DNA from: an uncultured Clostridia bacterium
GTDB lineage: Bacteria > Bacillota > Clostridia > UBA1381
Reading direction: 5' to 3'
NCBI GenBank assembly: GCA_944390495.1
Contig: CALXQE010000096.1
Coordinates: forward strand, 1 to 24,000
Length of the DNA stretch: 24,000 bases
Part shown: piece by piece, positions 4,392-21,640 of the stretch
How positions within the stretch are numbered: position 1 is the first letter of the stretch
Layout of the letters: every line of letters starts with the position of its first letter
The notes under the pieces: generated by a model
Seen by the model: the letters and a program-made list of their open reading frames with translations, nothing else
Databases searched by the model: none
Told to the model about the DNA's origin: nothing
Position numbers and translations under genes: made by a program

Positions 4392-4401
4392 TCCACAATA
4401 G

Positions 4402-4710
4402 TCCGATACTTGCGAAAAACATTATGGTATACTTGACCTAAAGGCGAAATGACAGTATCAATTTCGGATGCTTCACGTGTGTTTTAGGCTAACTAAAGAA
4501 TATAAAATTACACCGTCAATGTCAATACGTGGTAATCTATATGACAATGCCTTAGCTGAAAATTTCTTTTCTATTCTTAAAACTGAGTGCATTCACAGGA
4601 TTCAACTGCACACCTATTAAGGGGAGATCCGCCTCATAGGTCAATACATAGATTTCTACAACAATTACCATATTCAAACTAAAACAAAATTGACACCATT
4701 TGAAAAATGA
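4402..4710 (+). pseudogene. IS3-family transposase (OrfB) 3' remnant, 5'-truncated with in-frame stops
   Basis: A single frame reads ...ILDLKAK*QYQFRMLHVCFRLTKEYKITPSMSIRGNLYDNALAENFFSILKTECIHRIQLHTY*GEIRLIGQYIDFYNNYHIQTKTKLTPFEK*. It contains the IS3 DDE C-terminal signature SMSxxGNxYDNAxxExFFxxLKxE and the YIxFYNN tail. In-frame stops lie at 4450-4452 and 4618-4620. Confidence 0.65.
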
Positions 4711-5234
4711 TGTTAGTTTATTGATTAAAATTTAATTATTCTAACATGGGTATACTTTTTTTGTGCTGTCCACACAATCTGGGCGGTTTAATAATATGTA
4801 TATGCTCTGATTTTTATAAACAATATGTCTTATCTTGCAACGTACAGTTCAAAATAAAGTCCAGAAAAACCATTTATCAAAGAGATATACTTTGCATAGA
4901 GTATGCGATATATTAAAAAATTGAATATAGCAAAAAATAGTATTTAGGTTAAAATGTACATTATCAGAAGTCATCTCAAGTTACACACGAACTTGTTTGT
5001 GTGATAAGAACAATAAGATTTTATGTTATCTGTATTAATATATTTTAAATCGTAATAATCTCTAAAGGATAATTATACAATCTATTGAAATATAATCGTT
5101 AAAAGATTACGGTATGATATGTAAAAAAATGGACATAATGGAATTGGAAGGGAAATAAAAGTTAATATTTTGTGTATTTTGTACAAAATAATATATAAAT
5201 TAATATATAAACTAATAAAAATGATATTTTCCTA

Positions 5235-5263
5235 TTGACAAACAACTGATTTTGTAGTAATCT
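5235..5263 (+). promoter_or_regulatory. putative sigma-A promoter of the beta-glucoside operon
   Basis: It reads TTGACA (5235-5240), 17 nt, TAATCT (5258-5263). The -10 is weak. It would place the transcript start just before the first RAT. Confidence 0.35.
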
Positions 5264-5276
5264 GATAACAGAAAAA

Positions 5277-5347
5277 GTTTGTTATTACGTGATGGTAAGC
5301 AAGACTGTTTATAATGCTGTTTTTGGGGTATTATAAGCAGTTTTTTT
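5277..5347 (+). promoter_or_regulatory. RAT (ribonucleic antiterminator) element overlapping a terminator, upstream of licT
   Basis: GTTTGTTATTACGTGATGGTAAGCAAGAC resembles the sacB/bgl RAT consensus (GGTTTGTTACTGATAAAGCAGGCAAGACCT). Its 3' end overlaps the stem CTGTTTATAAT / ATTATAAGCAG, which is followed by T7. Confidence 0.7.
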
Positions 5348-5372
5348 ATCTTTTACACGAGAGGTGAGAATT

Positions 5373-6224
5373 ATGGAAATTATCCGAGTTTTGAATACAA
5401 ATGCCGTTGTGACGGTTGATAAAAATCAACATGAGATAATTGTAACGGGTCCAGGACTTGGTTTTCGTAAGAAAAAGGGTGATTCTCTTGATGAGTCGTT
5501 AATAGATAAAACCTACAAACTGCAAAGTAATGAAGACAGTCGCAAACTTCAGGAGTTTGTTATGGCTGTTTCAGAACAATACCTCGATATTGCCAAACGT
5601 GTAGTTACAGAGGCTAGAGAAAAAGAAGGTCTGAAAATAAATGATGTACTCTATGTTACACTTACAGATCATATTAATTCAGCCATTGAAAGATATCAAT
5701 CAGGAATTGTGCTTAATAATGTGCTGAAATCAGATATTGAAAAATTTTATCCCAAAGAGTTTTCGATAGGAAAAAAGGCTATCCTATGGATTAAAGAAGA
5801 AACGGGGATTGACTTAGGTGATAATGAGGCAGCATTTATTGCTATGCACATAGTTGCATCTCAAACCAATGATAACAATACATCTAATGTACAAAAAATG
5901 ACAGAACTTATTAATGCTATTGTACAGATTGCAAGACTTCATTTTAAAGTTGATTTTCATGAAAATTCGTTTTCATATCAAAGATTTATTACACACTTGA
6001 AGTTTTTTGCAGGAAGAGTTTTTGATAATGCTACCTACAAAGACAGCATGTCTGAAATTTATAATATAATTATAAAACAAAATGCTTATGTCTATTCAGG
6101 AGTTCAGAAGGTTGCAGAATTTATAAAAAAAAGATATAACTATATTTTGAGTGTTGATGAGGCATTTTATCTTATGATTCATTTGAAACGTATCCTTGAT
6201 GAGGAACAACAGAATACACTATAA
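5373..6224 (+). CDS. licT: BglG/LicT/SacY-family PRD-containing transcription antiterminator
   Basis: The N-terminus MEIIRVLNTNAVV...GPGLGFRKKKGD is a CAT RNA-binding domain, followed by two PRD-like halves. GAGAGG lies 9 nt upstream of ATG 5373. The track start at 5364 is an upstream GTG. Confidence 0.9.
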   Translation: MEIIRVLNTNAVVTVDKNQHEIIVTGPGLGFRKKKGDSLDESLIDKTYKLQSNEDSRKLQEFVMAVSEQYLDIAKRVVTEAREKEGLKINDVLYVTLTDHINSAIERYQSGIVLNNVLKSDIEKFYPKEFSIGKKAILWIKEETGIDLGDNEAAFIAMHIVASQTNDNNTSNVQKMTELINAIVQIARLHFKVDFHENSFSYQRFITHLKFFAGRVFDNATYKDSMSEIYNIIIKQNAYVYSGVQKVAEFIKKRYNYILSVDEAFYLMIHLKRILDEEQQNTL

Positions 6225-6226
6225 TA

Positions 6227-6318
6227 GGTTTGTTATTATTAAGTTAAGCAAGACCTGATTGTAAATTTTACGCATAATACCCGGGAATGTGTATCATTTG
6301 CAGTCAGGTCTTTATTTA
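6227..6318 (+). promoter_or_regulatory. second RAT element overlapping a terminator, upstream of the PTS gene
   Basis: GGTTTGTTATTATTAAGTTAAGCAAGACCTGA is a very close RAT match. AAGACCTGA (6250-6258) pairs with TCAGGTCTT (6304-6312), followed by TATTTAT. Confidence 0.75.
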
Positions 6319-6346
6319 TAAAAATAAAAGAAAAGAGGTATTTATT

Positions 6347-8245
6347 ATGGATTACGAAAACATTGCAAAAAAAATATTGCACCGTGTCGGTGGCAAAGAT
6401 AATGTTGTAAGTGTTATTCACTGCATGACAAGACTGCGTTTTACATTAAAAGATCAGTCGATTGTAGATGATGAGGCGATAAAAAAGACAAAAGGTGTAA
6501 TGGGTGTTGTTAAAAAGGCAGGTCAATATCAAATCATAATTGGTAATGATGTAGCAAATGTTTACACTGAAATATGCAAACTTGGTAATTTTTCCGACAC
6601 TCCAAATAATAAAAAAGATGTGCCAAAAGAGAAAAAAAATATTCTAAGTATGCTTATGGATACCATTTCAGGTATAATGACACCTGTTATTCCGGCTATC
6701 ATAGGTGCTGCAATGATAAAAATATTGCTCACACTTTTGCCTATGCTCGGACTTATTGATACTGCCGGTGAAACATACAGTATCCTTAATGTTATAGGTG
6801 ATGGAGCGTTCTTCTTCTTGCCGGTGCTTATTGCGATTTCGGCTGCTAAAAAATTTGGTACAAATGTTTATTATGCGGTCAGTTTGGCACTTATTATGCT
6901 CCATCCAAATTTCATAGAAATGATGAATACGGTAAAGGAAACAGGAGAAGCAGTTCATTTTCTGAAATTCATACCAGTATCATATGCATCATATGCATAT
7001 TCGGTTATACCGATTATATTATCAGTTTGGGCGTTGAAATATGTTGAAAAACTTGTTGAAAAAATTACTCCGGTTGTAACGAAAAACTTCTTAAAACCAA
7101 TGCTTGTTATGCTTATTGCAGCACCGATTGCTTTAATAGTTTTAGGACCGCTTGGAGCAATATTCGGTGATGTTCTGTCAAAGGTGGTTTATTTTATACA
7201 CGATAAGCTTGGATTTATTGCTATCGGTATTATTGCAGGTATTTATCCGTTTGTGGTTATGGCAGGAATGCACCATGCATTTACACCTATTAAACTTGGA
7301 ATGTTAGCAACTACCGGATTTGAAAACTTTATATGTATAGGTGAGCTTTGCTCCAATATGGCACAAGGTGCTGCATCTGCAGCTGTTGCATTTAAGACAA
7401 AGAACAAGGATTTCAGACAGGTCGCAGGATCATCAGCATTCTCAGCACTTGTAGCAGGTATTACAGAACCAGCACTTTACGGTGTTACTTTAAGATTAAA
7501 GAAACCAATGCTTGGTGCTTGTATAGGAGCTGTTATAGGAGGTTTATTCGGAGGATTTTTCCAGTTAAAATGCTTTGGAATTGCAACACCAGCGATGGTG
7601 AGTATAGTTCAATATGTTGAAAGCGGTCGTCCTGCAAGTCTTTTGATTGCGGCACTTACAATACTAATAACTGCCGTTGCTGCTTTTATAGCAACTATGA
7701 TTATAGGTTTTGAAGACGTGGTTGATGAAGATGATGAATTGGACGTTGATGAAATAGCTTCAGCAGAAGAAAACAATTCAAAGTATGAAGGAGAAAGAAT
7801 GATAGTTGCTTCTCCTATTAAAGGAAAAACAATTTCACTTCTATCAGTAAACGATCCGACATTTTCAAATGAAATACTTGGCAAAGGTGCAGCTGTTGTA
7901 CCTGAGTCGGATGAGGTTTACGCTCCGTTTGACGGGACTGTTACAAATATGTTTGAAACAGGTCATGCTGTAGGATTGGAAAGTAATGATGGCATAGAAC
8001 TTTTAATACATGTAGGTCTTGACACGATTAATTTGAATGGACAATATTTTAATCCAGCAGTAAAAACAGGCGATGTAGTAAAGAAGGGTGATATGCTTTT
8101 GAAATTTGACAGGAATGAAATAAAGAAAGCAGGCTATGATATTACTACTCCTATAATAGTTACAAATTCCGATAATTTTAATAATGTTGAGTTAATAGAA
8201 GAAAAGAACTGTGATAAATTAGAACCACTAATTACTGTTAAGTGA
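6347..8245 (+). CDS. PTS beta-glucoside-family transporter, fused EIIB-EIIC-EIIA
   Basis: The EIIB Cys motif is VIHCMTRLRF. A multi-TM EIIC core follows. The C-terminal EIIA-Glc-type domain carries the TGHAVGL and LIHVGLDT histidines. The AAGAGG RBS precedes ATG 6347; the track start at 6287 lies inside the terminator. Confidence 0.9.
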   Translation: MDYENIAKKILHRVGGKDNVVSVIHCMTRLRFTLKDQSIVDDEAIKKTKGVMGVVKKAGQYQIIIGNDVANVYTEICKLGNFSDTPNNKKDVPKEKKNILSMLMDTISGIMTPVIPAIIGAAMIKILLTLLPMLGLIDTAGETYSILNVIGDGAFFFLPVLIAISAAKKFGTNVYYAVSLALIMLHPNFIEMMNTVKETGEAVHFLKFIPVSYASYAYSVIPIILSVWALKYVEKLVEKITPVVTKNFLKPMLVMLIAAPIALIVLGPLGAIFGDVLSKVVYFIHDKLGFIAIGIIAGIYPFVVMAGMHHAFTPIKLGMLATTGFENFICIGELCSNMAQGAASAAVAFKTKNKDFRQVAGSSAFSALVAGITEPALYGVTLRLKKPMLGACIGAVIGGLFGGFFQLKCFGIATPAMVSIVQYVESGRPASLLIAALTILITAVAAFIATMIIGFEDVVDEDDELDVDEIASAEENNSKYEGERMIVASPIKGKTISLLSVNDPTFSNEILGKGAAVVPESDEVYAPFDGTVTNMFETGHAVGLESNDGIELLIHVGLDTINLNGQYFNPAVKTGDVVKKGDMLLKFDRNEIKKAGYDITTPIIVTNSDNFNNVELIEEKNCDKLEPLITVK

Positions 8246-8259
8246 GAGAGGTGTTTAAT

Positions 8260-9711
8260 ATGGATAATACAACTAAGCGAGAATTTCCATCAGATTTTTT
8301 ATGGGGCAGTGCGTCAGCCGCATATCAGATTGAGGGTGGATATCTTGAGGACGGAAAAGGTATGTCGAACTGGGATGCGTTTGTACGCATCCCAGGTAAG
8401 ACATTTAAGTCAACAACGGGTGATATTGCAGTAGATCATTATCATCGCTATAAAGAGGATATTGCACTTATGGCTCAAATGGGGCTTAAGACGTATCGTT
8501 TTTCTGTGGCGTGGGCAAGAATTTATCCAAACGGAAACGGTGAGCTTAATAAAAAAGGTGTTGAATTTTACAATAATCTTATAGATGAGTGTTTAAAATA
8601 TAATATAGAACCTATGGTTACAATTTTTCACTGGGATTTGCCTCAATCATTGGTTGATGAGTACGGTGGTTGGGAAAACCGTAATATAGTTGATGACTAT
8701 GTGAATTATGCAAAGACTTTGTTCAAAGAGTTTGGTAATAAAGTAAAATATTGGATTACTTTAAATGAACAAAATATTTTTACATCACTTGGATGGCTTA
8801 CAGCACAGCACCCACCAGGAAAATTTGATGATAAAAAGATGTTCTATCAAGTTAATCATCACGCATTCATGGCACATGCAAAGGCTGTTATTGCCTATCG
8901 AGAGATGGGTGGATGCGGAAAAATAGGAGCAAGTTTTGCTTATACTCCTTCGTATGCTCTTGATTGCCGTCCATCAAACGCTATGTCAAAATATAACTAT
9001 GATGATTTAAAAAATTTCTGGTGGCTTGATGTCTATGGATATGGACGTTATCCGAAAGCAGCGATGACTTATTTAAAGCGAAAAGGTATTGCTCCTGAAA
9101 TCAAACAGGGTGATGAGAATATATTAAAAAAAGCTGCCATGGAAATTGATTTTATGGGTGTGAATTATTATCAAAGCTGTGTTTGTGAATATAATCCTAT
9201 GGATGGTGTAACACCTTATGGAACGATGAATACGACTGGTGTAAAAGGTTCATCACAGGTGGTTGGTATCCCAGGTATTTATAAAAATCCTGCTAACCCG
9301 TATTTGATGACTACCGACTGGGATTGGAGTATAGATCCGGTAGGTCTTAAATATTGCTGTCGTGAAATCACAAGCAGATACAATTTGCCTATAATAATAT
9401 CTGAAAACGGTCTTGGTGCTTTTGATAAAAAAGAAACAGATAATAGTATACATGATGATTATCGTATAAAATATCTCGAAGAACATGTAAAATCTTTAGG
9501 TGAAGCAATAAGTGAAGGCTGTGAAGTGTTAGCGTATTGTACATGGTCTTTTACTGATCTTTTAAGCTGGCTAAATGGTTATCAAAAGCGTTATGGATTT
9601 ATATATGTAGATCGTGATGAAAATGACAGTGCACCGATGACTCGATATAAAAAAGACAGTTACTTTTGGTATAAAAAGGTAATTGAAACAAACGGTAAAT
9701 GTATTGAATAA
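8260..9711 (+). CDS. glycoside hydrolase family 1, 6-phospho-beta-glucosidase
   Basis: GH1 signatures are present: FLWGSASAAYQIEGG, acid/base TLNEQN and nucleophile ISENG. The RBS GAGAGAGG precedes ATG 8260. Confidence 0.9.
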   Translation: MDNTTKREFPSDFLWGSASAAYQIEGGYLEDGKGMSNWDAFVRIPGKTFKSTTGDIAVDHYHRYKEDIALMAQMGLKTYRFSVAWARIYPNGNGELNKKGVEFYNNLIDECLKYNIEPMVTIFHWDLPQSLVDEYGGWENRNIVDDYVNYAKTLFKEFGNKVKYWITLNEQNIFTSLGWLTAQHPPGKFDDKKMFYQVNHHAFMAHAKAVIAYREMGGCGKIGASFAYTPSYALDCRPSNAMSKYNYDDLKNFWWLDVYGYGRYPKAAMTYLKRKGIAPEIKQGDENILKKAAMEIDFMGVNYYQSCVCEYNPMDGVTPYGTMNTTGVKGSSQVVGIPGIYKNPANPYLMTTDWDWSIDPVGLKYCCREITSRYNLPIIISENGLGAFDKKETDNSIHDDYRIKYLEEHVKSLGEAISEGCEVLAYCTWSFTDLLSWLNGYQKRYGFIYVDRDENDSAPMTRYKKDSYFWYKKVIETNGKCIE

Positions 9712-9727
9712 AGAGGAGTTGTGTAAA

Positions 9728-10672
9728 ATGCGGTACTATATAGGAATTGATTTGGGCGGTACAAATATTGCCGCAGGTATTGTTGATTCAAACGGTAAAA
9801 TCATGATAAAAGACAGTAAACCCACATTAAAAGAGCGCCCGACAGAAGAAATAATAGAGGATATGGTAAAGCTTGTTGAAAATTTAATAAAACGATGTGG
9901 TATAGCCAAGTACGATATTTCAGGAATTGGCATAGGATGTCCCGGCGCAGTTGATAATCGAAAAGGAATCATAACGTACTGCGTCAATGTACCAATGAAA
10001 AATGTGAAAATAGCCGAATATATCACAAGTCGTACAGGTATTCCTGTGAATCTTGAGAATGACGCTAATGCTGCTGCTTTAGGTGAATATAATGTAAAAG
10101 GCAGGGGTGCAAATAGTTATATTTTCATTACCCTCGGTACAGGCATAGGAGGCGGAGCGATTATTGCTGGGAAAATATACAGAGGATTCAACGGTGTAGG
10201 TATTGAGGCAGGGCACATGACACTTGTTCATAACGGTGATCGATGTACTTGCGGAAAGCGTGGCTGCTGGGAATGCTACGGATCTGTAACAGCTTTAATC
10301 AATCAAACAATAGAAAAAATGAATGCAAATCCTTCTTCGCTTATGAATATTAAAGCCAAAAAAATTGGAAAAGTTGATGGCAGAGTAGCATTTGAAGCTG
10401 CAAAAGAAGATGATAAGTCAGCCAAAGAAGTTGTACAGCAATATCTTGAATACGTTACTGACGGTATAACAAGTATCATAAATATATTTGAGCCTGAATT
10501 ACTTGTTATAGGAGGTGGAATAAGTAAGGAAGGTGATTATTTGCTTGAGCCTATTATAGAGTATGTGCACAAATACGAATATAACAAATATTGTCCAAAG
10601 ACAAAAATAGAAATTGCTTCACTTATGAATGATGCCGGAATAATAGGTGCAGCAATGTCGTGCGTAAAATAA
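9728..10672 (+). CDS. ROK-family sugar kinase (glucokinase-like)
   Basis: The N-terminus MRYYIGIDLGGTNIAAG is an ATP-binding motif, and the ROK zinc motif is GHMTL...CTCGKRGCWECYGS. AGAGGAG lies 9 nt upstream of ATG 9728. Confidence 0.8.
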   Translation: MRYYIGIDLGGTNIAAGIVDSNGKIMIKDSKPTLKERPTEEIIEDMVKLVENLIKRCGIAKYDISGIGIGCPGAVDNRKGIITYCVNVPMKNVKIAEYITSRTGIPVNLENDANAAALGEYNVKGRGANSYIFITLGTGIGGGAIIAGKIYRGFNGVGIEAGHMTLVHNGDRCTCGKRGCWECYGSVTALINQTIEKMNANPSSLMNIKAKKIGKVDGRVAFEAAKEDDKSAKEVVQQYLEYVTDGITSIINIFEPELLVIGGGISKEGDYLLEPIIEYVHKYEYNKYCPKTKIEIASLMNDAGIIGAAMSCVK

Positions 10673-10720
10673 ATCATGTTTTTGATAAATTGAAGGAGTT
10701 TTTGCTGGTACAACTGCGTG

Positions 10721-10907: not shown

Positions 10908-11237
10908 TTATAATTTTAGGTATTGTTGTGCATCAGAACCATTGTTTCCAAGATTTTTAACATTTTTTATAGTTCCATTTTTAACATTATCATATAACCA
11001 TCGACCAAGTAATGCTGGTGGAGTATCGATCAAATCTCTCAAAAAGAACGTTTCTCCCTTTGCAAGATTATTAATTTTATTTACCATGTCGATGTATAAA
11101 TCGCCATAAGAATTTTTTCCGTTGAATGCTCTTGCTTTACATAATGCAGCAATGTTAGGATATCCTTCAGCTCTTGCTTGGCAATCCAACATTGCTTTTT
11201 CGGAGTCGCTAATAGTAAATTGTACTCTAAAACTCAT
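10908..11237 (-). CDS. small hypothetical protein: ribbon-helix-helix-like N-terminus plus DUF1413-like C-terminus (tentative)
   Basis: GGAGG lies 5 nt upstream of ATG 11237. The product starts MSFRVQFTISDSEKAMLDCQARAEGY.... The C-terminus GETFFLRDLIDTPPALLGRWLYDNVKNGTIKNVKNLG recalls DUF1413 from memory only. Confidence 0.6.
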   Translation of the reverse strand: MSFRVQFTISDSEKAMLDCQARAEGYPNIAALCKARAFNGKNSYGDLYIDMVNKINNLAKGETFFLRDLIDTPPALLGRWLYDNVKNGTIKNVKNLGNNGSDAQQYLKL

Positions 11238-11254
11238 AAAAACCTCCATGTTAT

Positions 11255-11315: not shown

Positions 11316-11387
11316 TAGTTTTTAAGTTGCATAATGAAATTATAGTTTCAAGCTGAATTTTAAACCTGCAAAAGTCGGATAAATGTA

Positions 11388-11467: not shown

Positions 11468-12823
11468 ATGGAAAAAATCAAAGACAACAGTAAATATTTT
11501 GGTACAGAAAAAATCAGTCGTATTTTGCTTAAAATGGCACCGCCTGTAATGTTTGCACAGCTTATACAAGCACTTTACAATATAATAGACAGCGTATTTG
11601 TGGGAAAGTATTCAGAAAATGGACTTACGGCATTATCAATTGTTTATCCACTTCAACTATTGATGATAGCACTTGCAGTTGGTACAGGTGTGGGGATAAA
11701 CACAGTAATGGCTTCAAAATTAGGTATAGGACAAGATAAAAAAGCAGATGAGTGTGCAGGTGTAGGAACACCGCTTGCTATTGTACTATGGTTTTTGTTT
11801 GCGGCGGTATGTTTTTTTATTATGCCTTTTTATGCAAAAATGCAAACATCTTCTCCTGATGTTATATCTGATGTAATATTATACGGACGAATTATAAGTG
11901 TGTTTAGTTTTGGGATTTTTCTTGAAAGTATTTGGACGAAAATTCTTCAAGCACGAGGTGATATGAAAGTACCTATGGTTGCACAAATTGCAGGAGCAGT
12001 TACTAATATTATTCTTGATCCTATACTTATTTTCGGTATGTTTGGCATCCCTGAAATGGGTATTTCAGGTGCAGCAGTTGCAACTGTTTTAGGGCAAGTG
12101 GTTGCGGCACTGATTGTGATGAAAAAAGGATATTACAAATCACCGGCTATAAAAAAATATTTTCGCTATATCAAACAAATATTTCGTTTGGGTATACCGA
12201 ATATTCTTATGCAATCGGCATATACTCTATACATTTTCGGACTGAATGTAATTCTTGCTGCGTTTTCCGATGCGGCCGTAACAGTGCTTGGGCTTTATTA
12301 CAAGTGGCAGTCTATTTTCTTTATTCCTTTAGGTGCAATGCAGACATGTATTGTGCCGGTTATTAGTTTTAACCATGCGGCAAGGAATTTTGAACGGTGT
12401 AAAAAGACTCTTAATACAGCCATTATTTTTGGTATGGCTTTGATGTTTGTAGGAACTCTTTGTTTTGAGTTTATTCCGGAACCTATGCTGCGTTTTTTCT
12501 CCTCTGAAGAAGATGTTATTTTAATAGGAATAACTGCTTTTAGAATAATCGGATTAAGTTTTATTCCACTTGTGACATCCCTTACATATCCTGTATTTTT
12601 TCAATCGGTTGGAGGAAGTTTTAAAAGTTCGTTTCTAACAATTATTCGTACAGTTTTTCTTTTTGTGCCGTTAGCATATATATTTTCACGTTTTGGACTT
12701 GGGTATTTCTGGCTTACATACCCTGTGACGGACAGTATTGTATCAATTATTGGGTTTGTTATGACTTATAAATTTTTCAATAATACATATATGGCAAAAG
12801 AGAGAAGCAGAGTGAATTACTGA
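11468..12823 (+). CDS. MATE-family efflux transporter
   Basis: The 451-aa product has about 12 predicted TM segments. The N-terminus ...ILLKMAPPVMFAQLIQALYNIIDSVFVGK is the typical MatE motif, and there is internal two-fold repeat character. Confidence 0.88.
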   Translation: MEKIKDNSKYFGTEKISRILLKMAPPVMFAQLIQALYNIIDSVFVGKYSENGLTALSIVYPLQLLMIALAVGTGVGINTVMASKLGIGQDKKADECAGVGTPLAIVLWFLFAAVCFFIMPFYAKMQTSSPDVISDVILYGRIISVFSFGIFLESIWTKILQARGDMKVPMVAQIAGAVTNIILDPILIFGMFGIPEMGISGAAVATVLGQVVAALIVMKKGYYKSPAIKKYFRYIKQIFRLGIPNILMQSAYTLYIFGLNVILAAFSDAAVTVLGLYYKWQSIFFIPLGAMQTCIVPVISFNHAARNFERCKKTLNTAIIFGMALMFVGTLCFEFIPEPMLRFFSSEEDVILIGITAFRIIGLSFIPLVTSLTYPVFFQSVGGSFKSSFLTIIRTVFLFVPLAYIFSRFGLGYFWLTYPVTDSIVSIIGFVMTYKFFNNTYMAKERSRVNY

Positions 12824-12854: not shown

Positions 12855-13649
12855 TCACTCAATAGGCACAGCCAATCTTGTTACATAGTTCTCTGTATTA
12901 ATATCCCTGCCGGTATATGGTGCAACAATAGCAATCGCACGTACATAACCTGTGGGTTTAATGCCAAGTTCACGGATTTTTTCGCCTAATTCATCATATA
13001 CTCTTTTTGCATTGCGGTAGGGACCGTAATACAGACACGAAAATGCATTACAGCTTGGATAAACCACTGCATCCTCTGGAGCATGATCTGGCTCTAAAGG
13101 TACACAGCAAATAAAATCACACTCAATGTTTTTAAATTCGTTATCAATAAAATCCGTACGTTTGTTTATAACAAATAAAGAACCTGACGGAAGCGGTTTG
13201 TACTCCTTTTCAACAACTTCATGAAAAAGATTATACATATTTATGTATCGATTATCTGTAGTAGTGCTGGAATATTCTCTTTGATAACAGATATATTCCG
13301 GTAAGGTTACAAATTCAAAGGTTATTTTTTCTTTGTTTTCAGTGCGAAGTTTCATTTCTTCATAAGTGTGTTTTGCGAGAAGATACCTATCTTCAATTAT
13401 TTTTAAAAGCTCCTCAGATTTTCCGTTAGAGTTGTAGTATAATAACGCATCATCATAGCTCATTCCCATATTTAAAAAATTCTTGATTTGCAAAATTCTG
13501 CTTATATTATGGTTATCGTAATAGCGGTAACCTGTTTTTTTATCTACAAAAGTAGGGGTAAGAAGCCCTTTTTCTTCCAGACGTAGAATGGTTGCCCTTG
13601 AAATACCGCAGCTCTTAACAGCTTGACTTATTGTGAATAAATTTCTCAT
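12855..13649 (-). CDS. MerR-family transcriptional regulator with C-terminal GyrI-like effector-binding domain (BmrR-like architecture)
   Basis: The N-terminal MerR wHTH is FTISQAVKSCGISRATILRLEEKGLLTP...GYRYY. A coiled-coil linker follows, then a ~150-aa C-terminal domain typical of GyrI-like ligand sensors. Confidence 0.88.
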   Translation of the reverse strand: MRNLFTISQAVKSCGISRATILRLEEKGLLTPTFVDKKTGYRYYDNHNISRILQIKNFLNMGMSYDDALLYYNSNGKSEELLKIIEDRYLLAKHTYEEMKLRTENKEKITFEFVTLPEYICYQREYSSTTTDNRYINMYNLFHEVVEKEYKPLPSGSLFVINKRTDFIDNEFKNIECDFICCVPLEPDHAPEDAVVYPSCNAFSCLYYGPYRNAKRVYDELGEKIRELGIKPTGYVRAIAIVAPYTGRDINTENYVTRLAVPIE

Positions 13650-13697: not shown

Positions 13698-13763
13698 TAT
13701 TATAATTTATAAAATATTAGAAGTCAATAGATAGTGTAAAGTAAAAATAAGGAGAAATGCGTA

Positions 13764-16700
13764 ATGAAGAAAAGATTTATATCGCTTTTTACGATATTGT
13801 GTATGGCGGTATCGCTGATGCCGTCAATAATATTACCGGCTGCGGCAGAAACGAGCGTTTATGGTTACGGCACTAATGTATTACAGAATCCATCACCCAC
13901 ATCAAATGATTATTGGGAATTGGAAGATTGTTCTTATGGAAAATATTTGGGCTTGGGCAAAGATGAACCATATATATTCGGTGCAAAACAGGGAACGAAT
14001 ATTGCCGCAAGGCAGAAGATAACACTGATCGATGAAGATGTAATTCGTGCAAATAACGGAGAATTAACATTGTCGGCTTCAGGTAAATTTTATGCACAAG
14101 GCTCAAGAAGCCTTACGGCAAATTTGAATATTATTTGTTATAATTCATCTGGTGCTGTTTTAGCGACCTATAATGACCGTTATTCAGAGTATTCCTTTAG
14201 TGGCAGGACAAAGACTTTAAGTATAGGGGAGTCACAGATTCCTGCCGGTACCTCTTATATTGTGTATGAGGGTACGGAAGTCTTGGGTTCGGGCAATGCT
14301 TATTTCGGCATGTATGATTTCAGCATGATATTTTTCGACAAAACCACCCCAACGGTTAAAACTACACCATATCTTTATGCGGTAAATGATGATACAAATT
14401 TGCCGGCGTATGTTGTGCCTGAAAATAAGATTACATATGCTATTGATTTTAGCGAAGCGGTGACGGTCGGTGCATATCCTACAATAGATTTATCTATTGA
14501 ATCAGATGTAAGCTATGATATAACTTATTCAGAGGATAGGCAAACTGTATATTTTACAACGGCACTTCCTAATACGGGAACAAATACAAACGTTCAGCTT
14601 AAAAAAATATCAGGACTTTATGTTAAAGATGATGCGGGAAACGAATGCAGTTATACAGACGAATCACTTTCCGTCGGCAATCTTTCGTACAAATCTGTTT
14701 TTGATGTTACAAACAGCCTTACGAATTTAAGTTTTGCCGGAAACACGACTGTTAGGTACAAAACAGCATATTCTGCAACTCTTACACCGAATGACGGGTA
14801 TAAACTGCCTGATAGCATTACCGTAAAGGTAAACGGCAGTACCATAACCGATTATAATTATAATTCGTCAACGGGACAAATTTTGGTAAATTCCTCTGCA
14901 GTGACGGGTAATATTGAAATTACAGCGACAGCACCGGCACAAACATATACCATTACATTTGATATGCAGGGAGGTAGCGGCGGTACAGGAAGTATGGACA
15001 TAACGTACCTTAACCAATTATCATCTGTTACACCTCCGACACGTAACGGCTATACCTTTGGCGGATACTTTAGTGAAAAAAATGGCGGCGGAACACAGTA
15101 TTACCAGTATGATGGAAATTCAGGAAAAATATATGACAAAACTACCAATATAACGCTGTATGCGAAATGGACTCCGAAAGAGTATAGCGTTACACTTGAT
15201 GCACAGGGCGGAACGAATGGCGGAACGGTTACCGCAACTTATGATTCAGACATGCCTGCTATGACAAAACCAACTAAAAAAGGCTATACCTTTAATGGGT
15301 ATTATACACAGCCAAACGGAGCAGGCGAGAAATATTATAATGCTGACGGAACATCTGCGAGGAAATATGATAAAATAGACGGACTGGTACTTTATGCATC
15401 ATGGATTGCCAATGAGCATACTGTTACGCTGGATATGCAGGGCGGAAGCGGTAGGACGGCAAGCGTTACTGCAACCTATGACCAAGCTATGCCAAGCATT
15501 AAACCTCCTACCAGAGAGGGATATACCTTTGGTGGATATTTTGATAATACAAACGGAGAAGGAAATCAGTATTACTACCCAAACGGTACATCTGCAAAGA
15601 CCTTTGAGGTGGACAGCGACTTAATACTTTATGCCAAGTGGACACCTAATATATATGATGTAGTGATAGATGCCCAGGGCGGTTCGGGCAGCGGAACTGT
15701 TACAGCGACCTATGACAGTGAGATGCCTGTGATAGCTTTGCCGGACAAACCGGGTTATATATTCGGCGGATACTTTAGTGAAAAAAATGGCGGCGGAACA
15801 AAGTATTACAATGAGGATTGTACGTCTTCAATAACGTATAAACAAACGGAAGGTATCACTCTATACGCACTTTGGACGCCGATTACATACAATATTCAGC
15901 TTTACAGCATGGGAGAAAATGTAGGAACATTAACGGACGTTACATACGGTGAGTTAAGTCTACCGTCTGCGGAAAGTCTTGGAATTTCTTATGCAAATCA
16001 TAATTTTGTAGGTTGGAATATTTATGATGAACAGAATTGGGCGATGTATATTGCAGGTCAAACCTATTCGACAGGTCTTGTAACAGAGCAGGGAAAGACA
16101 GCGTATGTATATGCAGCGTGGCTTGAAAAAGATAAATATACCGTTACCTATGATGCAAACGGCGGAGGGGGTGCACCTGCGGCCGTAGAAGTACATGTTG
16201 ATGAAACAATCACACTTAGTTCTTCTGTTCCAAGTCGTGAAAACTATACATTTGTCGGTTGGTCTCAAAATTCCGGAGCAGATACGGCACAGTATCAGCC
16301 GGGTGATAGTTTCACAATGGGGAATTCCCTTGTAACTCTTTTTGCAGTGTGGAAGAAAAATCCCGAATTATCATATAACTCAAATGGCGGTGTTTTCAGT
16401 ACCTATGTAGGAGTGTCATATCCGACGGCAGGAAGCAGTGTAAATCTTACGAGTGCCACACCACAGAAAGAAGGATATATTTTCTGTGGTTGGGCAGAAA
16501 GGGAAAATGCAGCCATTGACGATATCATATCATCGCCATATACAATGCCTGATAGAGATACAGTGCTTTATGCTGTATATGAGCCGATTAAATATGAAGT
16601 TCGGGTGAGTGAAGCAGCGGGCTATTCGGTTAACGGTATATCTGCTGACGGATATACAATCGGAGAGTATGCGGAATTTACTGTAAGCGGTGCAAATCCA

Positions 16701-19700
16701 AAGGTATATATAAACGGTATTCGTGTTATGCCTGAGGACGGGAAATATAAATTTGAAGTAAGCAATAGTTCGTCGATTATAGTTTCTGATTCTTCGTCGA
16801 TGAATGTAATTTATAGTGCAAACGGCGGTGTGAATGCACCTGTTGACATGAAAGTTTACGCAAACGGAGATACTGCATACATAACCTCACAGATACCGAC
16901 CAAAACAGGATATACATTCAAGGGCTGGACGGAAGCACCGAATTCCAGAAGTACAGTATATAATTACGGCGACAGTATTGCGGTTTCGGCGGAGGATATT
17001 GTATTATATGCTCTATGGGAACCTGTGAGCTATACTGTTAAATATGATTCAAATGGTGGCAGCGGCGATATGACACAAACCACAGCTGTATATGATGAAG
17101 CATTTAAGCTTTCGGAAAATACCTTTACAAAAGAGGGCTGTCAGTTTATAGGCTGGTCATATTCAGAAAACGGAGAGATGGCATATGCAAACGGAGCAAG
17201 TGTAAAAAATCTTTCCGATACACAGGATGATGAAATTACCCTTTATGCAATGTGGAAAAGTGCAAAGACAAAGGTTTTGTTTAATTTTGACGGGGGATCT
17301 TCCGGAACAACCTCATGCGAGGTTGAATACGGAAATGTGCTGCCGACAGACAAGCTGATTGCACCAATCAGATACGGATTTACATTTGCGGGATACTATA
17401 CAGAGGCAAATAAGAAAGGCAATTTAGTCTACAATGAGGATATGTCTTTGTCAGATTATTATAAAACAAATCCATGGAACAGCGTTTTATCTGAATTTAA
17501 TTTATATGCAGCATGGGAGCCGGTAAAATATAACGTATCATTTATAAGCGAAACAGGAGCAGTTGTTGCTGAAATAGAAGCAGTCTATGGAGAAGCTTTT
17601 ACATTGCCTGAAGTGGATACATTGGATGTTTCTGTTCCGGAGGGATATTCATTTAGAGGCTGGTCTGTTGCTCCGGGAAGTAATACGGTTTATTACAGTG
17701 ACGGTCAAAAAATTACAACAGGTCTTACAGGAGAAAACGATGTAACGGTTTATCTGTATGCTGTGATTCTTGAAAATGAAAGCTATTTGGTAACGCTTCC
17801 TGCCTCCGGTGAAGGTTATCATGTATATTATGACGGGGATGAATTAACGGCGGAGAAAAATGTAACAGTTACTGAGAATAAAAATATTTCGTTCAGCATA
17901 ACAGTAGACGATGGATACAGTGCAGATGAAATGACTGTTTTGACAAATGGGATTATACTTGGTGCTACAGAGATAAACGGCAGTACATACAGTTACAGTA
18001 TAAATAACATATCTGCCGACACAAGCGTTAATATATATAATGTTAATAAGGAAAAATTTAATGTTATACTTAATGACGGAACAGGTTACACTGTGTCGCC
18101 TAAAAATATAATAGTAGAAAGCGGACAGGACTTCAGTTTTTCAGTTACGCTTAAAGATGGATATAAAACTTCAATTCCTGATGTATATGTAAACGGACAG
18201 CTTATAAGCGGAACTAAGAATGAAAATATATTTACATATACCGTTACTGATGTAACAATGCAGCCTGTTATTTCAATTTCTGTTACACCGAATCAGCAGC
18301 ATACAATTACCTTTGTAAGTAACGGCAGTATATATCTAATAAGCACAGTGGAGGAGGGGATGCAGGTATCCCAGCCGAGTGCACCCGATAGAAACGGATA
18401 TACATTTGGAGGATGGTATACAGATATAGAGTGTAATAACCCATATGATTTTCAAACGGAGATAACAGATTCTATCACGCTTTATGCAAAGTGGACTGCT
18501 GATACATACACTGTGGAATATGACAAAAATACAACTGATGATGTTTCTGTCCCGGACAGTCAAACAAAAAATCACGACACTGTACTTACGCTAAGCTCTG
18601 ATATTCCGACTCGTACAGGATATACTTTTACAGGCTGGAATACAAAAGCTGACGGAACTGGAACAAGTTATATTGCAGGCGGTGAACTTAGCATAAATAA
18701 TAATATTACCCTCTATGCACAGTGGCAAATTAATAGATATGCAGTTTCGCTTGTTGTGGGAGATGGTGTGAGTGGCAGCATAAGCGCAAGTGAAGCTGCA
18801 CATGGCGAAACTGTTAAAATTACCGCAGTGAGTACAGATGGTCACGGTACACCTGTTGTTACAGCAATTCCTAAGGAAAATGCAGAACTTGTTTCTGACG
18901 GTGTCTATAAAATAACAGGTCCTGTTTCCTTTGTAGCAATGGCAGAGGCTAAGGGGATTTACACAGTAAAATTTTACCACAACGGCGGACTTTATTATAC
19001 GCAGTCTGCCATTGAGGGAAGTACAGACACAATCATACTGCCTAATCCTCCTGAAAAACAGGGTTATACTTTTGTCGGCTGGTTTACTGAACAGACAGGA
19101 GGAGAAGAGATAAATGAGTCGACGGTTTTGGATAAAGATATGTCTGTATATGCACAATTTACGGCAAATACTTTGACCGTAACACTGCCGCAAAGCGGAA
19201 ATGGATATATAGTTACGTCAAACGACGACACAAACGTAACTTATGGCGGCAGCTATACATTTACAATCACAGCAACAGCCGGTAATAACATTGATAATAT
19301 AGTAATTTTTGCAAACGGCATGGAGCTTACGCCGGTATCTGTAAGTGACGGAGTAATAATTTATACTATAAGCAATATAACAGAAAATATCACAGTCAGC
19401 ATAAGAGACGGTGGAATTGATACTTATACGATTACCTATCATTCGGCAACATCGGAGTATGTAGGTAATATGCCTGAAGGTCAGATTAAAGAAATTGGAA
19501 ACAGTGTTACATTATCAAATCTTGAACCACAGCGTTATGGATATACATTTGAAGGCTGGGCAACAGAGAAAGACGGTGAAGTGATTTACATGCCCGGTGC
19601 GGAATATACTGCTGATGAGGATGTTAATTTATATGCCGTATGGACACCAATAACATATACAGTTACTTATGAATTAAACGGCGGTACTATTAACAGCGGA

Positions 19701-21590
19701 GAAATAAATGAGTATGTGTATTCTGTCGGAGCGGTACTTCCGTCAGATGTAACAAAAGACGGATTTGATTTTATAGGTTGGTACGATAATGAATTTCTTG
19801 AAGGAGTACGTGTAACAGAAATTACACCTACAGACAGCGGAGATAAAAAATATTATGCACGTTATTCATTGTCGAGTGTTGTACCGAATGGTTATGAGGG
19901 TGAATATGACGGAAGCGGACATATTTTAGAATACACGCTGGTAGATGAACTGACAGTGCAATCATATCAATGGTATTTTAAGGCGGATAGCAGTAATATG
20001 TTTATACCTGTTCAGTCAGAATCTGCATTTTCTTATACTGTATGTGATGTGTCGGACAGCGGCGAGTATTACTGTTATGTAGAAGCGTTGCAAGACGGCT
20101 GCATTGTGAGATTTAACACCGGAGCGGCAAATGTTAATATTACAAAGAAACCGCTTTTGGTAAAAGCAAAGAGTGCCCAGAAAACCTATGACACTTTGCC
20201 ACTGACGTCGAAAGAAATTGAATTTACAGACGAAACTGTACCGATAAGCGGACATATTGTAAAAGCAGAAATGACAGAAACAAGTACAATTACAAATGCA
20301 GGAACGGTCGAAAATAATCTGCAAAATGTTACTGTTTATGATGCCGATAATAATGATGTAACAGCAAATTATGAAATTCAATGTATATCCGGAACACTTA
20401 CTGTAAATAAATTGCCTCTTTCAGTAGAGGGAAATACAGTATCGAAATATAAAAATGCTTCTGTTGCAGAAAGTGAATTATACAAGATTTCAGGTGTTTT
20501 AAGCGGTGAAACACTTTCTATTGACAATACATCTTTTGTTATAACAAATTCAAAGGGTGAAGTGGTAAACAGTTTAAGTGATATTACAAAAGAAAACGGC
20601 ACTTATAAAATTACCATAACATTTAACGGTTTTGCAGGTGATGGCTGTGAAAACTATACAGGAAGCGGTAATATTATTTCTAATATTACCGTAAGTTCTC
20701 GTCCTTCAGGCGGCGGCAGCAGCGGAGGTAGCAGTGGCGGTAGTGGCAGTAGTAGTAACAGCGAGGGTGACAGCGAAGCTGACAATGAACAATCAAAGTA
20801 TGTAGTAAGCTTTGATACAAACGGTGCTGAAAAAATAGACAGCGTTACGGTTATTAAAAATCAAAAATTAAATCAACCGGAAGAGCCGACAAAGGAAGGA
20901 TATACTTTTGGTGGTTGGTACACAGATAGAGAGCTTACAACTGCTTATGATTTCTCTTTAGGGGTAACAGAATCATTTGTGCTTTATGCAAAGTGGACAA
21001 AAACAGATGATAACAATGATAATGAACAGTATGAACCTCCGTTTGATGATGTTGAGCCTGATAAGTGGTATTATACCGATATCGGTTTTGTGGTTGAGAA
21101 CGGCATATTTAACGGAATAACAGATGAAATTTTTGGGCCTGAGGAGATTATCACAAGAGCGATGCTTGTTACGGTTTTATATCGTGTAGAGGGTGAACCG
21201 GAAGTTACAGGTACTGCCACCTTTGAAGATATAGATAAAGACGGGTATTATGCAGAAGCGATTGTTTGGGGACAGCAGAACGGAATAATAAAAGGATATT
21301 CCGACACGGAATTTGCTCCCGACCAAAACATTACAAGAGAACAGATAGCGGCAATCATGCACAGATACGCTAAGTATAAAGGTATTGACACAACAGAGGA
21401 AGAAAAAACAGATATTTATTTCTATACAGATTATGATGATATTTCAGGGTATGCAATACCGTCTGTTCAGTATGTTGTCGGCAGTGGTTTGATGCAGGGC
21501 AAGACTGCTGTAACATTCCATGCTCTTGATAATGCAACAAGAGCGGAAATAGCAGCTATACTTCATAGATTTATTGTATCAAACAATTAA
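13764..21590 (+). CDS. 2608-aa secreted, SLH-anchored cell-surface protein with ~17 Listeria-Bacteroides repeat (Flg_new-type) domains, Ig-like modules, MBG-like domains, a Gly/Ser linker and 3 C-terminal SLH domains
   Basis: The signal peptide is MKKRFISLFTILCMAVSLMPSIILPAAAE. The motif GYTFxGW(Y/F)...LYAKW recurs. NYEIQCISGTLTVNK is MBG-like. The linker is SGGGSSGGSSGGSGSSS. The SLH repeats are FDDVEPDKWYY..., FEDIDKDGYYAEAI... and ...SGYAIPSVQYVVGSG.... AAGGAG precedes the ATG. Confidence 0.9.
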   Translation: MKKRFISLFTILCMAVSLMPSIILPAAAETSVYGYGTNVLQNPSPTSNDYWELEDCSYGKYLGLGKDEPYIFGAKQGTNIAARQKITLIDEDVIRANNGELTLSASGKFYAQGSRSLTANLNIICYNSSGAVLATYNDRYSEYSFSGRTKTLSIGESQIPAGTSYIVYEGTEVLGSGNAYFGMYDFSMIFFDKTTPTVKTTPYLYAVNDDTNLPAYVVPENKITYAIDFSEAVTVGAYPTIDLSIESDVSYDITYSEDRQTVYFTTALPNTGTNTNVQLKKISGLYVKDDAGNECSYTDESLSVGNLSYKSVFDVTNSLTNLSFAGNTTVRYKTAYSATLTPNDGYKLPDSITVKVNGSTITDYNYNSSTGQILVNSSAVTGNIEITATAPAQTYTITFDMQGGSGGTGSMDITYLNQLSSVTPPTRNGYTFGGYFSEKNGGGTQYYQYDGNSGKIYDKTTNITLYAKWTPKEYSVTLDAQGGTNGGTVTATYDSDMPAMTKPTKKGYTFNGYYTQPNGAGEKYYNADGTSARKYDKIDGLVLYASWIANEHTVTLDMQGGSGRTASVTATYDQAMPSIKPPTREGYTFGGYFDNTNGEGNQYYYPNGTSAKTFEVDSDLILYAKWTPNIYDVVIDAQGGSGSGTVTATYDSEMPVIALPDKPGYIFGGYFSEKNGGGTKYYNEDCTSSITYKQTEGITLYALWTPITYNIQLYSMGENVGTLTDVTYGELSLPSAESLGISYANHNFVGWNIYDEQNWAMYIAGQTYSTGLVTEQGKTAYVYAAWLEKDKYTVTYDANGGGGAPAAVEVHVDETITLSSSVPSRENYTFVGWSQNSGADTAQYQPGDSFTMGNSLVTLFAVWKKNPELSYNSNGGVFSTYVGVSYPTAGSSVNLTSATPQKEGYIFCGWAERENAAIDDIISSPYTMPDRDTVLYAVYEPIKYEVRVSEAAGYSVNGISADGYTIGEYAEFTVSGANPKVYINGIRVMPEDGKYKFEVSNSSSIIVSDSSSMNVIYSANGGVNAPVDMKVYANGDTAYITSQIPTKTGYTFKGWTEAPNSRSTVYNYGDSIAVSAEDIVLYALWEPVSYTVKYDSNGGSGDMTQTTAVYDEAFKLSENTFTKEGCQFIGWSYSENGEMAYANGASVKNLSDTQDDEITLYAMWKSAKTKVLFNFDGGSSGTTSCEVEYGNVLPTDKLIAPIRYGFTFAGYYTEANKKGNLVYNEDMSLSDYYKTNPWNSVLSEFNLYAAWEPVKYNVSFISETGAVVAEIEAVYGEAFTLPEVDTLDVSVPEGYSFRGWSVAPGSNTVYYSDGQKITTGLTGENDVTVYLYAVILENESYLVTLPASGEGYHVYYDGDELTAEKNVTVTENKNISFSITVDDGYSADEMTVLTNGIILGATEINGSTYSYSINNISADTSVNIYNVNKEKFNVILNDGTGYTVSPKNIIVESGQDFSFSVTLKDGYKTSIPDVYVNGQLISGTKNENIFTYTVTDVTMQPVISISVTPNQQHTITFVSNGSIYLISTVEEGMQVSQPSAPDRNGYTFGGWYTDIECNNPYDFQTEITDSITLYAKWTADTYTVEYDKNTTDDVSVPDSQTKNHDTVLTLSSDIPTRTGYTFTGWNTKADGTGTSYIAGGELSINNNITLYAQWQINRYAVSLVVGDGVSGSISASEAAHGETVKITAVSTDGHGTPVVTAIPKENAELVSDGVYKITGPVSFVAMAEAKGIYTVKFYHNGGLYYTQSAIEGSTDTIILPNPPEKQGYTFVGWFTEQTGGEEINESTVLDKDMSVYAQFTANTLTVTLPQSGNGYIVTSNDDTNVTYGGSYTFTITATAGNNIDNIVIFANGMELTPVSVSDGVIIYTISNITENITVSIRDGGIDTYTITYHSATSEYVGNMPEGQIKEIGNSVTLSNLEPQRYGYTFEGWATEKDGEVIYMPGAEYTADEDVNLYAVWTPITYTVTYELNGGTINSGEINEYVYSVGAVLPSDVTKDGFDFIGWYDNEFLEGVRVTEITPTDSGDKKYYARYSLSSVVPNGYEGEYDGSGHILEYTLVDELTVQSYQWYFKADSSNMFIPVQSESAFSYTVCDVSDSGEYYCYVEALQDGCIVRFNTGAANVNITKKPLLVKAKSAQKTYDTLPLTSKEIEFTDETVPISGHIVKAEMTETSTITNAGTVENNLQNVTVYDADNNDVTANYEIQCISGTLTVNKLPLSVEGNTVSKYKNASVAESELYKISGVLSGETLSIDNTSFVITNSKGEVVNSLSDITKENGTYKITITFNGFAGDGCENYTGSGNIISNITVSSRPSGGGSSGGSSGGSGSSSNSEGDSEADNEQSKYVVSFDTNGAEKIDSVTVIKNQKLNQPEEPTKEGYTFGGWYTDRELTTAYDFSLGVTESFVLYAKWTKTDDNNDNEQYEPPFDDVEPDKWYYTDIGFVVENGIFNGITDEIFGPEEIITRAMLVTVLYRVEGEPEVTGTATFEDIDKDGYYAEAIVWGQQNGIIKGYSDTEFAPDQNITREQIAAIMHRYAKYKGIDTTEEEKTDIYFYTDYDDISGYAIPSVQYVVGSGLMQGKTAVTFHALDNATRAEIAAILHRFIVSNN
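14943..15887 (+). repeat. four tandem ~237-bp (79-codon) intragenic repeats encoding Listeria-Bacteroides repeat units
   Basis: The units begin TYTITFDMQGG, YSVTLDAQGG, HTVTLDMQGG and YDVVIDAQGG. An identical 36-nt block GGCGGATACTTTAGTGAAAAAAATGGCGGCGGAACA occurs at 15060-15095 and 15765-15800. Confidence 0.75.
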
Positions 21591-21607
21591 ATAACGGGAA
21601 TTTTAAT

Positions 21608-21640
21608 GGGCATACCAAAAAACGGTATGCCCTAATTTTA
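21608..21640. terminator. rho-independent terminator after the giant gene
   Basis: A 9-bp perfect stem (GGGCATACC / GGTATGCCC) with a 7-nt loop is followed by TAATTTTA. On the other strand it is followed by ATTAAAATT. Confidence 0.6.

Follow-up and report, generated by a model that had tools for sequence, protein, structure and literature searches.

A 20.1-kb element without recognisable phage genes splits dpaA in an uncultured Clostridia bacterium

The split dpaA gene and the contents of the element

In a 24,000-nucleotide stretch of DNA from an uncultured Clostridia bacterium (contig CALXQE010000096.1 of assembly GCA_944390495.1), which is referred to here as the window, the gene dpaA for subunit A of dipicolinate synthase is interrupted by an element of 20,105 bp, measured core to core (1594 to 21699) between the two copies of GTAGGGA at which the gene breaks off and resumes (1594-1600 and 21699-21705). 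In Bacillus and C. difficile, dpaA is a mother-cell gene under the control of sigmaK. Both halves of the gene are intact and point in the same direction, and each matches its own part of the NCBIfam DpaA model PRK08306, which has 297 positions (Table 1). When joined at GTAGGGA they read in frame through ...SIKNAVPTAEGAIEIA... and yield a DpaA of 288 amino acids (aa) that is 82-85% identical to intact homologues of equal length. In the sense of dpaA, the two junctions are AAAAACGCAGTCCCTAC|TGCGTTTGTAATATAGCTA and TAGCTAAACCGCTAACGCAATCCCTAC|CGCGGAGGG, and the split codon belongs to the conserved motif N-A-[IV]-P-T|A-E-G. After excision, the attachment (att) sites are predicted to read ...AAAAACGCAGTCCCTACCGCGGAGGGTGCG... 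at the attB junction and ...CCGCTAACGCAATCCCTACTGCGTTTGTAATATAGC... at the attP junction.

The element has a recombinase of its own, an intact large serine recombinase (LSR) that is the only recombinase within it, and cognate att arms at both ends. The element-side arms of the wider family described below define a palindromic attP, TAGCTATACCGCTAACGC-nnTCCCTACn-GCGTTAGCGGTATAGCTA, and relative to this consensus the arms in the window show one mismatch (left arm) and four differing positions. Neither internal att copies nor long repeats, which would be a sign of tandem accretion, were detected inside the element. The stretch downstream of the recombinase (4400-21640) constitutes the cargo.

An earlier note on this DNA, made from the sequence alone, had recognised no phage genes in the cargo, and the profile searches that it proposed are in agreement with this. 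The PHROGs search covered nine of the ten genes of the element, including the 7.8-kb gene, and four short intergenic open reading frames (ORFs; 2022-2186, 2331-2585, 2594-2734, and 4468-4620). Among these scanned genes, Pfam and PHROGs revealed no capsid, portal, terminase, tail, lysis, or phage repressor or replication function, about 25 short ORFs of 30-104 aa lying outside the scan. Matches in PHROGs were limited to the integrase, the transposase stub, faint MerR/helix-turn-helix-type hits (E 0.002-0.01), and families of "unknown function" that correspond to the MATE, GH1, ROK, MerR, and SLH (S-layer homology) regions. Likewise, Pfam and PHROGs gave no relaxase, coupling protein, type IV secretion system, replication initiator, or packaging gene in the element, and PADLOC found no defence system in it. 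We therefore rejected a prophage or prophage remnant, given the lack of structural, lysis, or replication matches in the scanned genes, and also an integrative conjugative or mobilizable element as judged by gene content, given the lack of transfer or replication genes. A composite transposon was rejected as well, since a single truncated IS3 stub is present and the cargo is not flanked by long repeats, whether direct or inverted.

Table 1. Positions of the dpaA halves, the junctions, and the genes and sites of the element and its flanks
Feature	Positions	Strand	Basis or remark
dpaB (dipicolinate synthase subunit B), host flank	535..1116	-	NCBIfam PRK08305 4e-84
dpaA 3' half (C-terminal ~159 aa)	1119..1598	-	PRK08306 132-290, 5e-70
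Left junction	1594..1620		core GTAGGGA (1594-1600) + element arm GCGTTAGCGGTTTAGCTA (1603-1620); alignment of 21 loci
Strain-variable ~840-bp segment, two orphan ORFs (2022-2186, 2331-2585)	1732..2572	-	
CATATTAA, -10-like box, mother-cell sigma type	2583..2590	+	8 nt upstream of the ribosome-binding site of the small ORF
Conserved 41-aa ORF directly upstream of the LSR	2609..2734	+	candidate recombination directionality factor
LSR, 530 aa from ATG	2768..4360	+	Resolvase 1e-34, Recombinase 9e-25, Zn_ribbon_recom; phrog_95 integrase 2e-122
IS3-family transposase gene, 3' end only, truncated, frameshifted	4468..4705	+	phrog_157 5e-11, phrog_956; weak rve_3
RAT-like (ribonucleic antiterminator) sequence over terminator, upstream of antiterminator gene	5276..5344	+	hairpin -31.5 kcal/mol, z -6.8
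BglG/LicT-type antiterminator	5373..6224	+	CAT_RBD 3e-19, PRD x2 1e-35
Second RAT-like sequence + terminator, before PTS gene	6226..6320	+	z -4.6
Beta-glucoside phosphotransferase system (PTS) EIIBCA	6347..8245	+	Pfam
GH1 phospho-beta-glucosidase	8260..9711	+	Glyco_hydro_1 8e-167
ROK-family kinase	9728..10672	+	ROK 2e-67
Small protein, function not assigned	10908..11249	-	threshold DUF1413 match only, 25.1 bits vs cutoff 25
MATE efflux transporter	11468..12823	+	MatE x2, 7e-42
MerR-family regulator + GyrI-like ligand domain	12855..13649	-	MerR_1 2e-11; GyrI-like 2e-3
Secreted surface protein of 2608 aa with variable N-terminal domain, 15 Flg_new repeats, and 3 SLH domains at the C-terminus	13764..21590	+	
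Right junction	21680..21705		element arm TAGCTATATTACAAACGC (21680-21697) + core GTAGGGA (21699-21705)
dpaA 5' half (N-terminal 131 aa)	21698..22090	-	DpaA_N 4e-29; PRK08306 6-137
CATATTAT, -10 box in dpaA promoter region	22125..22132	-	AC 17 nt upstream
ctsR + mcsA, host flank beyond the dpaA N-half	22252-23120	+	ORF listing, profile searches

The cargo had been listed in the earlier note as an IS3 remnant, a RAT-regulated bgl operon, a MATE exporter, a MerR/GyrI-like sensor, and an SLH-anchored protein, and the genes of all these items were confirmed by Pfam and PHROGs. The gene at 10908-11249, which had been taken to encode a small DNA-binding-type protein, is the exception, since nothing supports DNA binding and its DUF1413 match lies at the threshold. 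The beta-glucoside genes have the makeup of a PTS operon controlled by a BglG/LicT antiterminator, combining a CAT-PRD-PRD protein, an overlap of RAT and terminator, EIIBCA, and a GH1 enzyme. Both RAT-like sequences have the form GTTTGTTATTA-N-TAAGCAAGAC, overlap strong terminators, and were spotted by reading the leaders; the B. subtilis RAT consensus had no match within 3 mismatches, and Rfam at gathering thresholds yielded zero matches in the window. Only seven database matches were obtained for the N-terminal domain of the surface protein, a rare domain. As the earlier note had pointed out, the host also uses SLH anchoring: the flanking gene at 15-362 has an SLH domain, and more SLH genes adjoin it in a sister strain. 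Near the left junction, the two orphan ORFs (2022-2186 and 2331-2585) matched nothing in Pfam, PHROGs, NCBIfam, or PADLOC.

Constraint and variation among strains

About four strains share this element and its order of cargo genes, at 93-99.9% nucleotide identity. These are represented by an ENA contig (L042, 96%), a sequence covering the right junction (L043, 99.95%), Logan contigs (L048-L050, 93-98%), and a sequence 98.6% identical over the ROK-to-MerR block (L059). A search of 5.8 billion protein clusters returned no intact DpaA with more than 85% identity to the rejoined protein and many intact 288-aa homologues below that value, which means that no empty-site allele of the window's species has been sampled.

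Ratios of non-synonymous to synonymous change (dN/dS) were calculated with a home-made Nei-Gojobori script for the window versus L042 or L048. For the 3' half of dpaA the ratio was 0.03 in both pairs, from 8:1 and 27:3 synonymous to non-synonymous changes. The other ratios were 0-0.04 (dpaB), 0.076 (recombinase), 0-0.05 (the small ORF directly upstream of it), and 0.04-0.18 (PTS, GH1, MATE, MerR, and SLH proteins). Given that dpaA is split in all sampled strains and yet constrained, it must be rejoined where it is needed. We regard the constraint on the 3' half as the strongest computational argument for functional excision that these sequences offer.

The same comparisons bear on the idea that dpaA is permanently inactivated, in a lineage that either does not sporulate or has no dipicolinic acid (DPA) made by DpaAB, and that the element is a fixed scar with passengers. 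That no excision was observed in the collections searched would fit such a scenario, as would the state of the 3.1-kb element of one relative (L032, 6407-7501), where the recombinase match covers residues 2-369 only and the ORFs are short. Possibly this recombinase has decayed, which would lock dpaA in its split form. The low ratios for dpaA and dpaB among strains that all carry the element point the other way, as do the similar constraint on the recombinase and small ORF and the absence of stops and frameshifts from the split dpaA halves in 26 species-level genomes. Permanent loss of dpaA is accordingly a very improbable explanation.

The cargo itself is less stable. The earlier note had pointed to the physical linkage of these genes to a sporulation checkpoint, but the idea that this linkage safeguards them is weak in view of two observations. 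First, the ROK gene is broken into at least two fragments in L042 and L048-L050 and intact in the window and L059, which shows that a cargo gene is still decaying. Second, the left arm is in flux, the stretch from the left att site to the small ORF differing among three strains. L042 lacks the segment at 1732-2572, and L048 has a partly diverged version of it (81% identity) together with a different insert of ~2 kb. The breakpoint of the segment lies ~10 bp upstream of the box at 2583-2590 and is flanked by a short TCATA repeat. Identity to L042 and L048 in 500-bp bins is mosaic, with 97-99.8% in the bgl genes, 91-96% in the recombinase, and 94-97% in the flanks, a pattern suggesting that the bgl block was recently spread or homogenised by recombination. 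L059 (4177-4860) and the window (13729-14362) encode first ~200 residues of the SLH protein that are 56% identical, with no nucleotide match, suggesting that this tip domain is hypervariable or exchanged. Judging from these patterns, it is the recombination unit only, and not the cargo, that selection protects.

Relatives that break dpaA at the same codon

The earlier note had also proposed a survey of related genomes for dpaA occupancy and cargo. Scanning one genome per GTDB species for the recombinase yielded 41 loci with 38-72% identity, the best match being a Hominilimicola metagenome-assembled genome (MAG; Oscillospiraceae). dpaA fragments, identified by tblastn with the window proteins, adjoin the recombinase in 26 of these 41 species-representative loci, and in all 26 the break is at the identical dpaA codon. 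The window element belongs to a widespread family of elements that split dpaA in gut Clostridia and that have apparently not been described before. Relatives recovered end to end on one contig are 3.1-8.4 kb long, the window's 20.1 kb being the largest. Their cargo differs from locus to locus: complete relatives carry FeoAB, a YitT membrane protein, a CitMHS transporter, a cytidylate-kinase-like protein, a methyl-accepting chemotaxis protein, a flavodiiron-type protein, or a YkuD L,D-transpeptidase, and larger elements that were partly recovered carry an SLH amidase, a pilin-like protein, or a DUF5057 giant protein. An amino-acid ABC transporter with a two-component system was recognised from ORF translations only. 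No phage structural genes were found in the cargo of the relatives examined, nor any of the window's cargo genes, distant MATE matches excepted. No dpaA or att motif is present in the closest "phage" records (unverified faecal scaffolds of 4.4-6 kb, 41-46% identity) or in three IMG/VR contigs.

In five relatives (L001, L002, L005, L029, and L032) the recombinase stop codon lies less than 400 bp from the att arm. This slot is the place of the window's 17 kb, with the IS3 stub at the seam. The simplest reading is that the cargo was added step by step to a minimal element already in residence and was later ameliorated. The comparison of composition that the earlier note had suggested could be made but gave no difference: the GC content, GC content at third codon positions (GC3), and codon usage of the cargo are not separable from those of ~11 kb of host genes and are thus uninformative on the date or source of the cargo.

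Host-like composition would equally suit an origin of the bgl, MATE, and surface genes as ancestral chromosomal DNA that was caught between att sites by a rearrangement, and the same can be said of the SLH anchoring shared with the host neighbours and of the lack of mobile-element genes in the cargo except for the IS3 stub. However, in relatives whose dpaA is intact (82-85% identity), no bgl, MATE, or SLH gene neighbours dpaAB, and unrelated cargo fills the same slot of related elements. Furthermore, the ends are cognate halves of one palindromic attP with no extra att copies, and the IS3 stub sits at the seam. The closest named homologues of the PTS protein (72-75% identity) belong to Lachnospiraceae, whereas the host is Oscillospiraceae-like; one homologue with 73% identity lies in an ordinary chromosomal bglG-PTS-GH1 context. 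In line with the earlier note, which did not take the cargo for trapped DNA, we consider this origin hardly credible.

Another alternative is that the element is an integrative genomic island of the ordinary sort, or a mobilizable element, for which dpaA is a mere attachment site and which excises for transfer or stochastically, not developmentally. Its recombinase is of the phage-integrase class (phrog_95; 33-46% identity to phage integrases), and the family is found in both orientations relative to dpaA, depending on lineage. In addition, a primase-helicase (DUF5906, phrog_864) adjoins the recombinase in three distant relatives only, all Oscillospiraceae MAGs (L013, L014, and L024), where it lies just upstream of the small ORF and recombinase (at 8082-9707 in L013). 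These features would befit an island. On the other hand, the window element lacks replication, relaxase, transfer, and packaging genes, it is present in all sampled strains of the species with no empty site found, and constraint on a split dpaA half requires regular and precise rejoining in the cells that make spores. Moreover, divergence of the recombinase tracks that of the host dpaA (19 loci, Mantel r 0.73, 0/2000 permutations), and this co-divergence fits long vertical residence. An island of this kind is, in our view, unlikely.

A short ORF of ~40 aa precedes the recombinase in 38 of 42 sequences scanned, and most of these ORFs carry the motif RGI[IV][KR]ELY-x5-[IL][ST]xx[QE][FY]xxL. By its position and co-conservation, the 41-aa ORF of the window is the best candidate for the recombination directionality factor. 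The box CATATTAT in the dpaA promoter region is identical to the -10 box that is given as canonical for the sigma factors of the C. difficile mother cell (PMC3789822). Sites of the form CATATTAW number six in the window (both strands, 48 kb), among them CATATTAA upstream of the small ORF and one in the dpaA promoter. At -60 to -15 of the small ORF, CATA[TC][ATG] occurs in 10 of 21 independent lineages, compared with 60 of 493 background genes (12%) from the same loci (p 7e-5). Developmental control of the small ORF and recombinase by mother-cell sigmaE/sigmaK is likely but unproven. A different sequence, GCATATACATAAA, is fully conserved ~27 nt upstream of the small ORF in L008, L009, L012, L015, L021, and L031, in GC-rich surroundings, and CATATACAAT is present in the dpaA promoter region of the window (minus strand, from 22148).

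Some loci depart from the simple arrangement. In L027 and L028, three additional serine recombinase genes stand in tandem, reminiscent of gin. In L011 (3244-9607), L019 (7209-9278), and L025 (12934-20611), a second, unrelated recombinase clade is located ~114-125 residues into the dpaA C-half, leaving dpaA in three pieces. Its members are 39-45% identical among themselves and 25-28% identical to the window LSR. The first element is also present in these three loci, so that two excisions would be needed to rejoin dpaA. Matches to the C-half are cut off at residues 114-134 in L003, L004, and L009 as well. Outside dpaA, relatives of the recombinase (40-47% identity) are followed directly by Mn-catalase (CotJC-like) genes in truncated form, which match the model from position ~62 onwards (L026 11615-12574; L034 11467-12018; L040 11445-11891; L030 11643-12086), and the recombinase of Anaerovorax odorimutans precedes the C-terminal fragment of a GH18 gene. 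The wider recombinase clade may specialise on sporulation genes.

Proposed developmental excision and comparison with known elements

Taken together, we think it probable that 4400-21640 is the cargo of a 20.1-kb non-phage intervening element that rejoins dpaA by excision at sporulation. The element has the features of a sporulation gene-intervening element that can be read from sequence: interruption of the coding sequence of a sporulation gene, halves that join in frame across a short common core, a recombinase and att sites of its own, and purifying selection on the gene while it is split. During sporulation, the small ORF and recombinase would be transcribed in the mother cell from a promoter of the sigmaE/sigmaK type, and the small protein would act as directionality factor. 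Recombination between attL and attR would then release the element as a circle and restore dpaA, allowing DpaAB to function in DPA synthesis, while the chromosome of the forespore would retain the element. The mother-cell timing is inferred. The ancestral unit may have been a minimal element of 3-4 kb like those of the relatives, consisting of the small ORF, the recombinase, and the att sites. The 17 kb of cargo would have been gathered between the end of the recombinase gene and the att arm on the right, in part by insertion sequences or horizontally. It would serve vegetative life (beta-glucoside uptake, efflux, and surface adhesion) under its own regulators (RAT/antiterminator and MerR).

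Several points weigh against excision at sporulation. No attB or attP excision product was present in any assembled collection searched. A degenerate 44-mer for the attB, attP, attL, and attR of the species had no match in JGI metagenomes or IMG/VR, and the family-level attP palindrome pattern gave two chance matches in unrelated high-GC contigs and none in viral contigs. The dN/dS values come from a script of our own and, for dpaA, from the small counts given above; the N-half could be compared only with a near-identical strain, which makes the 3' half alone the subject of the selection test. The role of the small ORF is argued from its conservation and position, and the protein has no family in Pfam, PHROGs, or NCBIfam. 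If it is co-transcribed with the recombinase, the route of the original integration would be hard to explain. Finally, the promoter motif was picked post hoc, the -35 region is not conserved, and the CATA box is absent from several close relatives (L001-L005 and L007).

The proposed excision has precedents. The earlier note had held that known sporulation intervening elements are prophages or derived from them, which is contradicted by gin and by the skin elements, for which a 2022 survey found sizes of 2.6-48 kb and only the recombinase in common (10.1101/2022.02.25.481979). The 28.6-kb gin element in gerE of B. cereus ATCC 10987 was described in 2017 as free of phage-related genes (PMC5595907). 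Like the window element, gin splits a sporulation gene, is in the range of ~20-30 kb, and has no phage genes; it is excised by a serine recombinase with a small accessory factor (GirC and GirX), where the window has the LSR and its candidate factor. In contrast, gin encodes three serine recombinases together with a restriction-modification system and recJ, its genes are mostly unknown, and its GC content is below that of the host; the window element has a single recombinase and a composition like that of its host, its cargo can be assigned to metabolism, efflux, and the cell surface, and its target gene is another. The arrangement at dpaA is also less unusual than the earlier note claimed, since cargo without phage structural genes is the rule in its own family.

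The vfbin element in spoVFB (dpaB) of Bacillus weihenstephanensis KBAB4, as cited in PMC4191935 and PMC6957869, interrupts the same two-gene dipicolinate synthase operon, so that there, too, excision would gate DPA synthesis. According to these citing papers it is phage-related and resides in subunit B in a Bacillus, unlike the window element, which resides in subunit A, has no phage genes, and belongs to uncultured Oscillospiraceae-like Clostridia. The skin elements in sigK of B. subtilis and C. difficile (PMC5025042) resemble the window element in having an LSR near one edge and a size and cargo that vary between species. There a small factor sets the direction of recombination, for which the 41-aa ORF is our candidate. 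The target of skin is a sigma factor gene, so that its excision controls a regulon, and that of the window element is the gene of a biosynthetic enzyme. In the C. difficile element, skinCd, the recombinase is constitutively expressed and acts with a sigmaE-controlled factor, CD1234 (PMC5025042), encoded three genes away; the candidate in the window directly precedes the recombinase gene, with which it probably forms an operon. SPbeta, which is excised developmentally from spsM in B. subtilis by SprA and the mother-cell-expressed SprB (PMC4191935, PMC5499854), differs in being a functional phage. By analogy, the 41-aa protein would be a counterpart of CD1234 (skinCd), SprB (SPbeta), and GirX (gin). 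More distantly, the heterocyst DNA elements of cyanobacteria, such as the fdxN element with XisF (PMC4874684), are removed by a serine recombinase from genes of a terminal cell at differentiation, and some heterocyst genes hold several elements, as does the three-piece dpaA of some relatives. They belong to another phylum and another programme, and the XisF model scores 99 bits against the window LSR, with a cutoff of 375.

Published interruptions concern dpaB (vfbin), sigK (skin), spsM (SPbeta), spoVR, gerE (gin), yabG, cotJC, and spoIIID. No report of an intervening element in dpaA (spoVFA) was found in the literature searched, the 2013 Mol Microbiol survey by Abe et al. being outside its scope. 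What is new is dpaA as the target gene, the clade of recombinases together with the partner ORF, and a cargo that clearly consists of vegetative genes for metabolism and the cell surface. Tentatively, and as a possibility that we rate below the proposed excision itself, one recombinase clade that always has a ~40-aa partner may have come to specialise, across gut and soil Clostridia, on sporulation genes of the mother cell, with dpaA as the target in at least 26 species and genes of the cotJC-like and GH18 kinds apparently in others. It may now be a vertically inherited docking platform for vegetative adaptive genes, which would be kept in the spore and discarded by the mother cell. Examples would be sugar operons and genes for iron and amino-acid transport, chemoreception, and the cell surface.

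In summary, dpaA would join the sporulation genes that are gated by DNA excision, and in a large group of mostly uncultured gut Clostridia such elements would usually be small recombination units loaded with fitness genes and not decayed phages. Annotation pipelines will label dpaA as a pseudogene or as "missing" in these genomes, with the consequence that sporulation capacity is mispredicted. The recombinase, the att sites, and the 41-aa partner form compact, naturally diversified recombination units with a candidate directionality factor, which might serve as a tool. Likewise, the family would offer a natural experiment on the gain and loss of cargo where selection guards the recombination module only.

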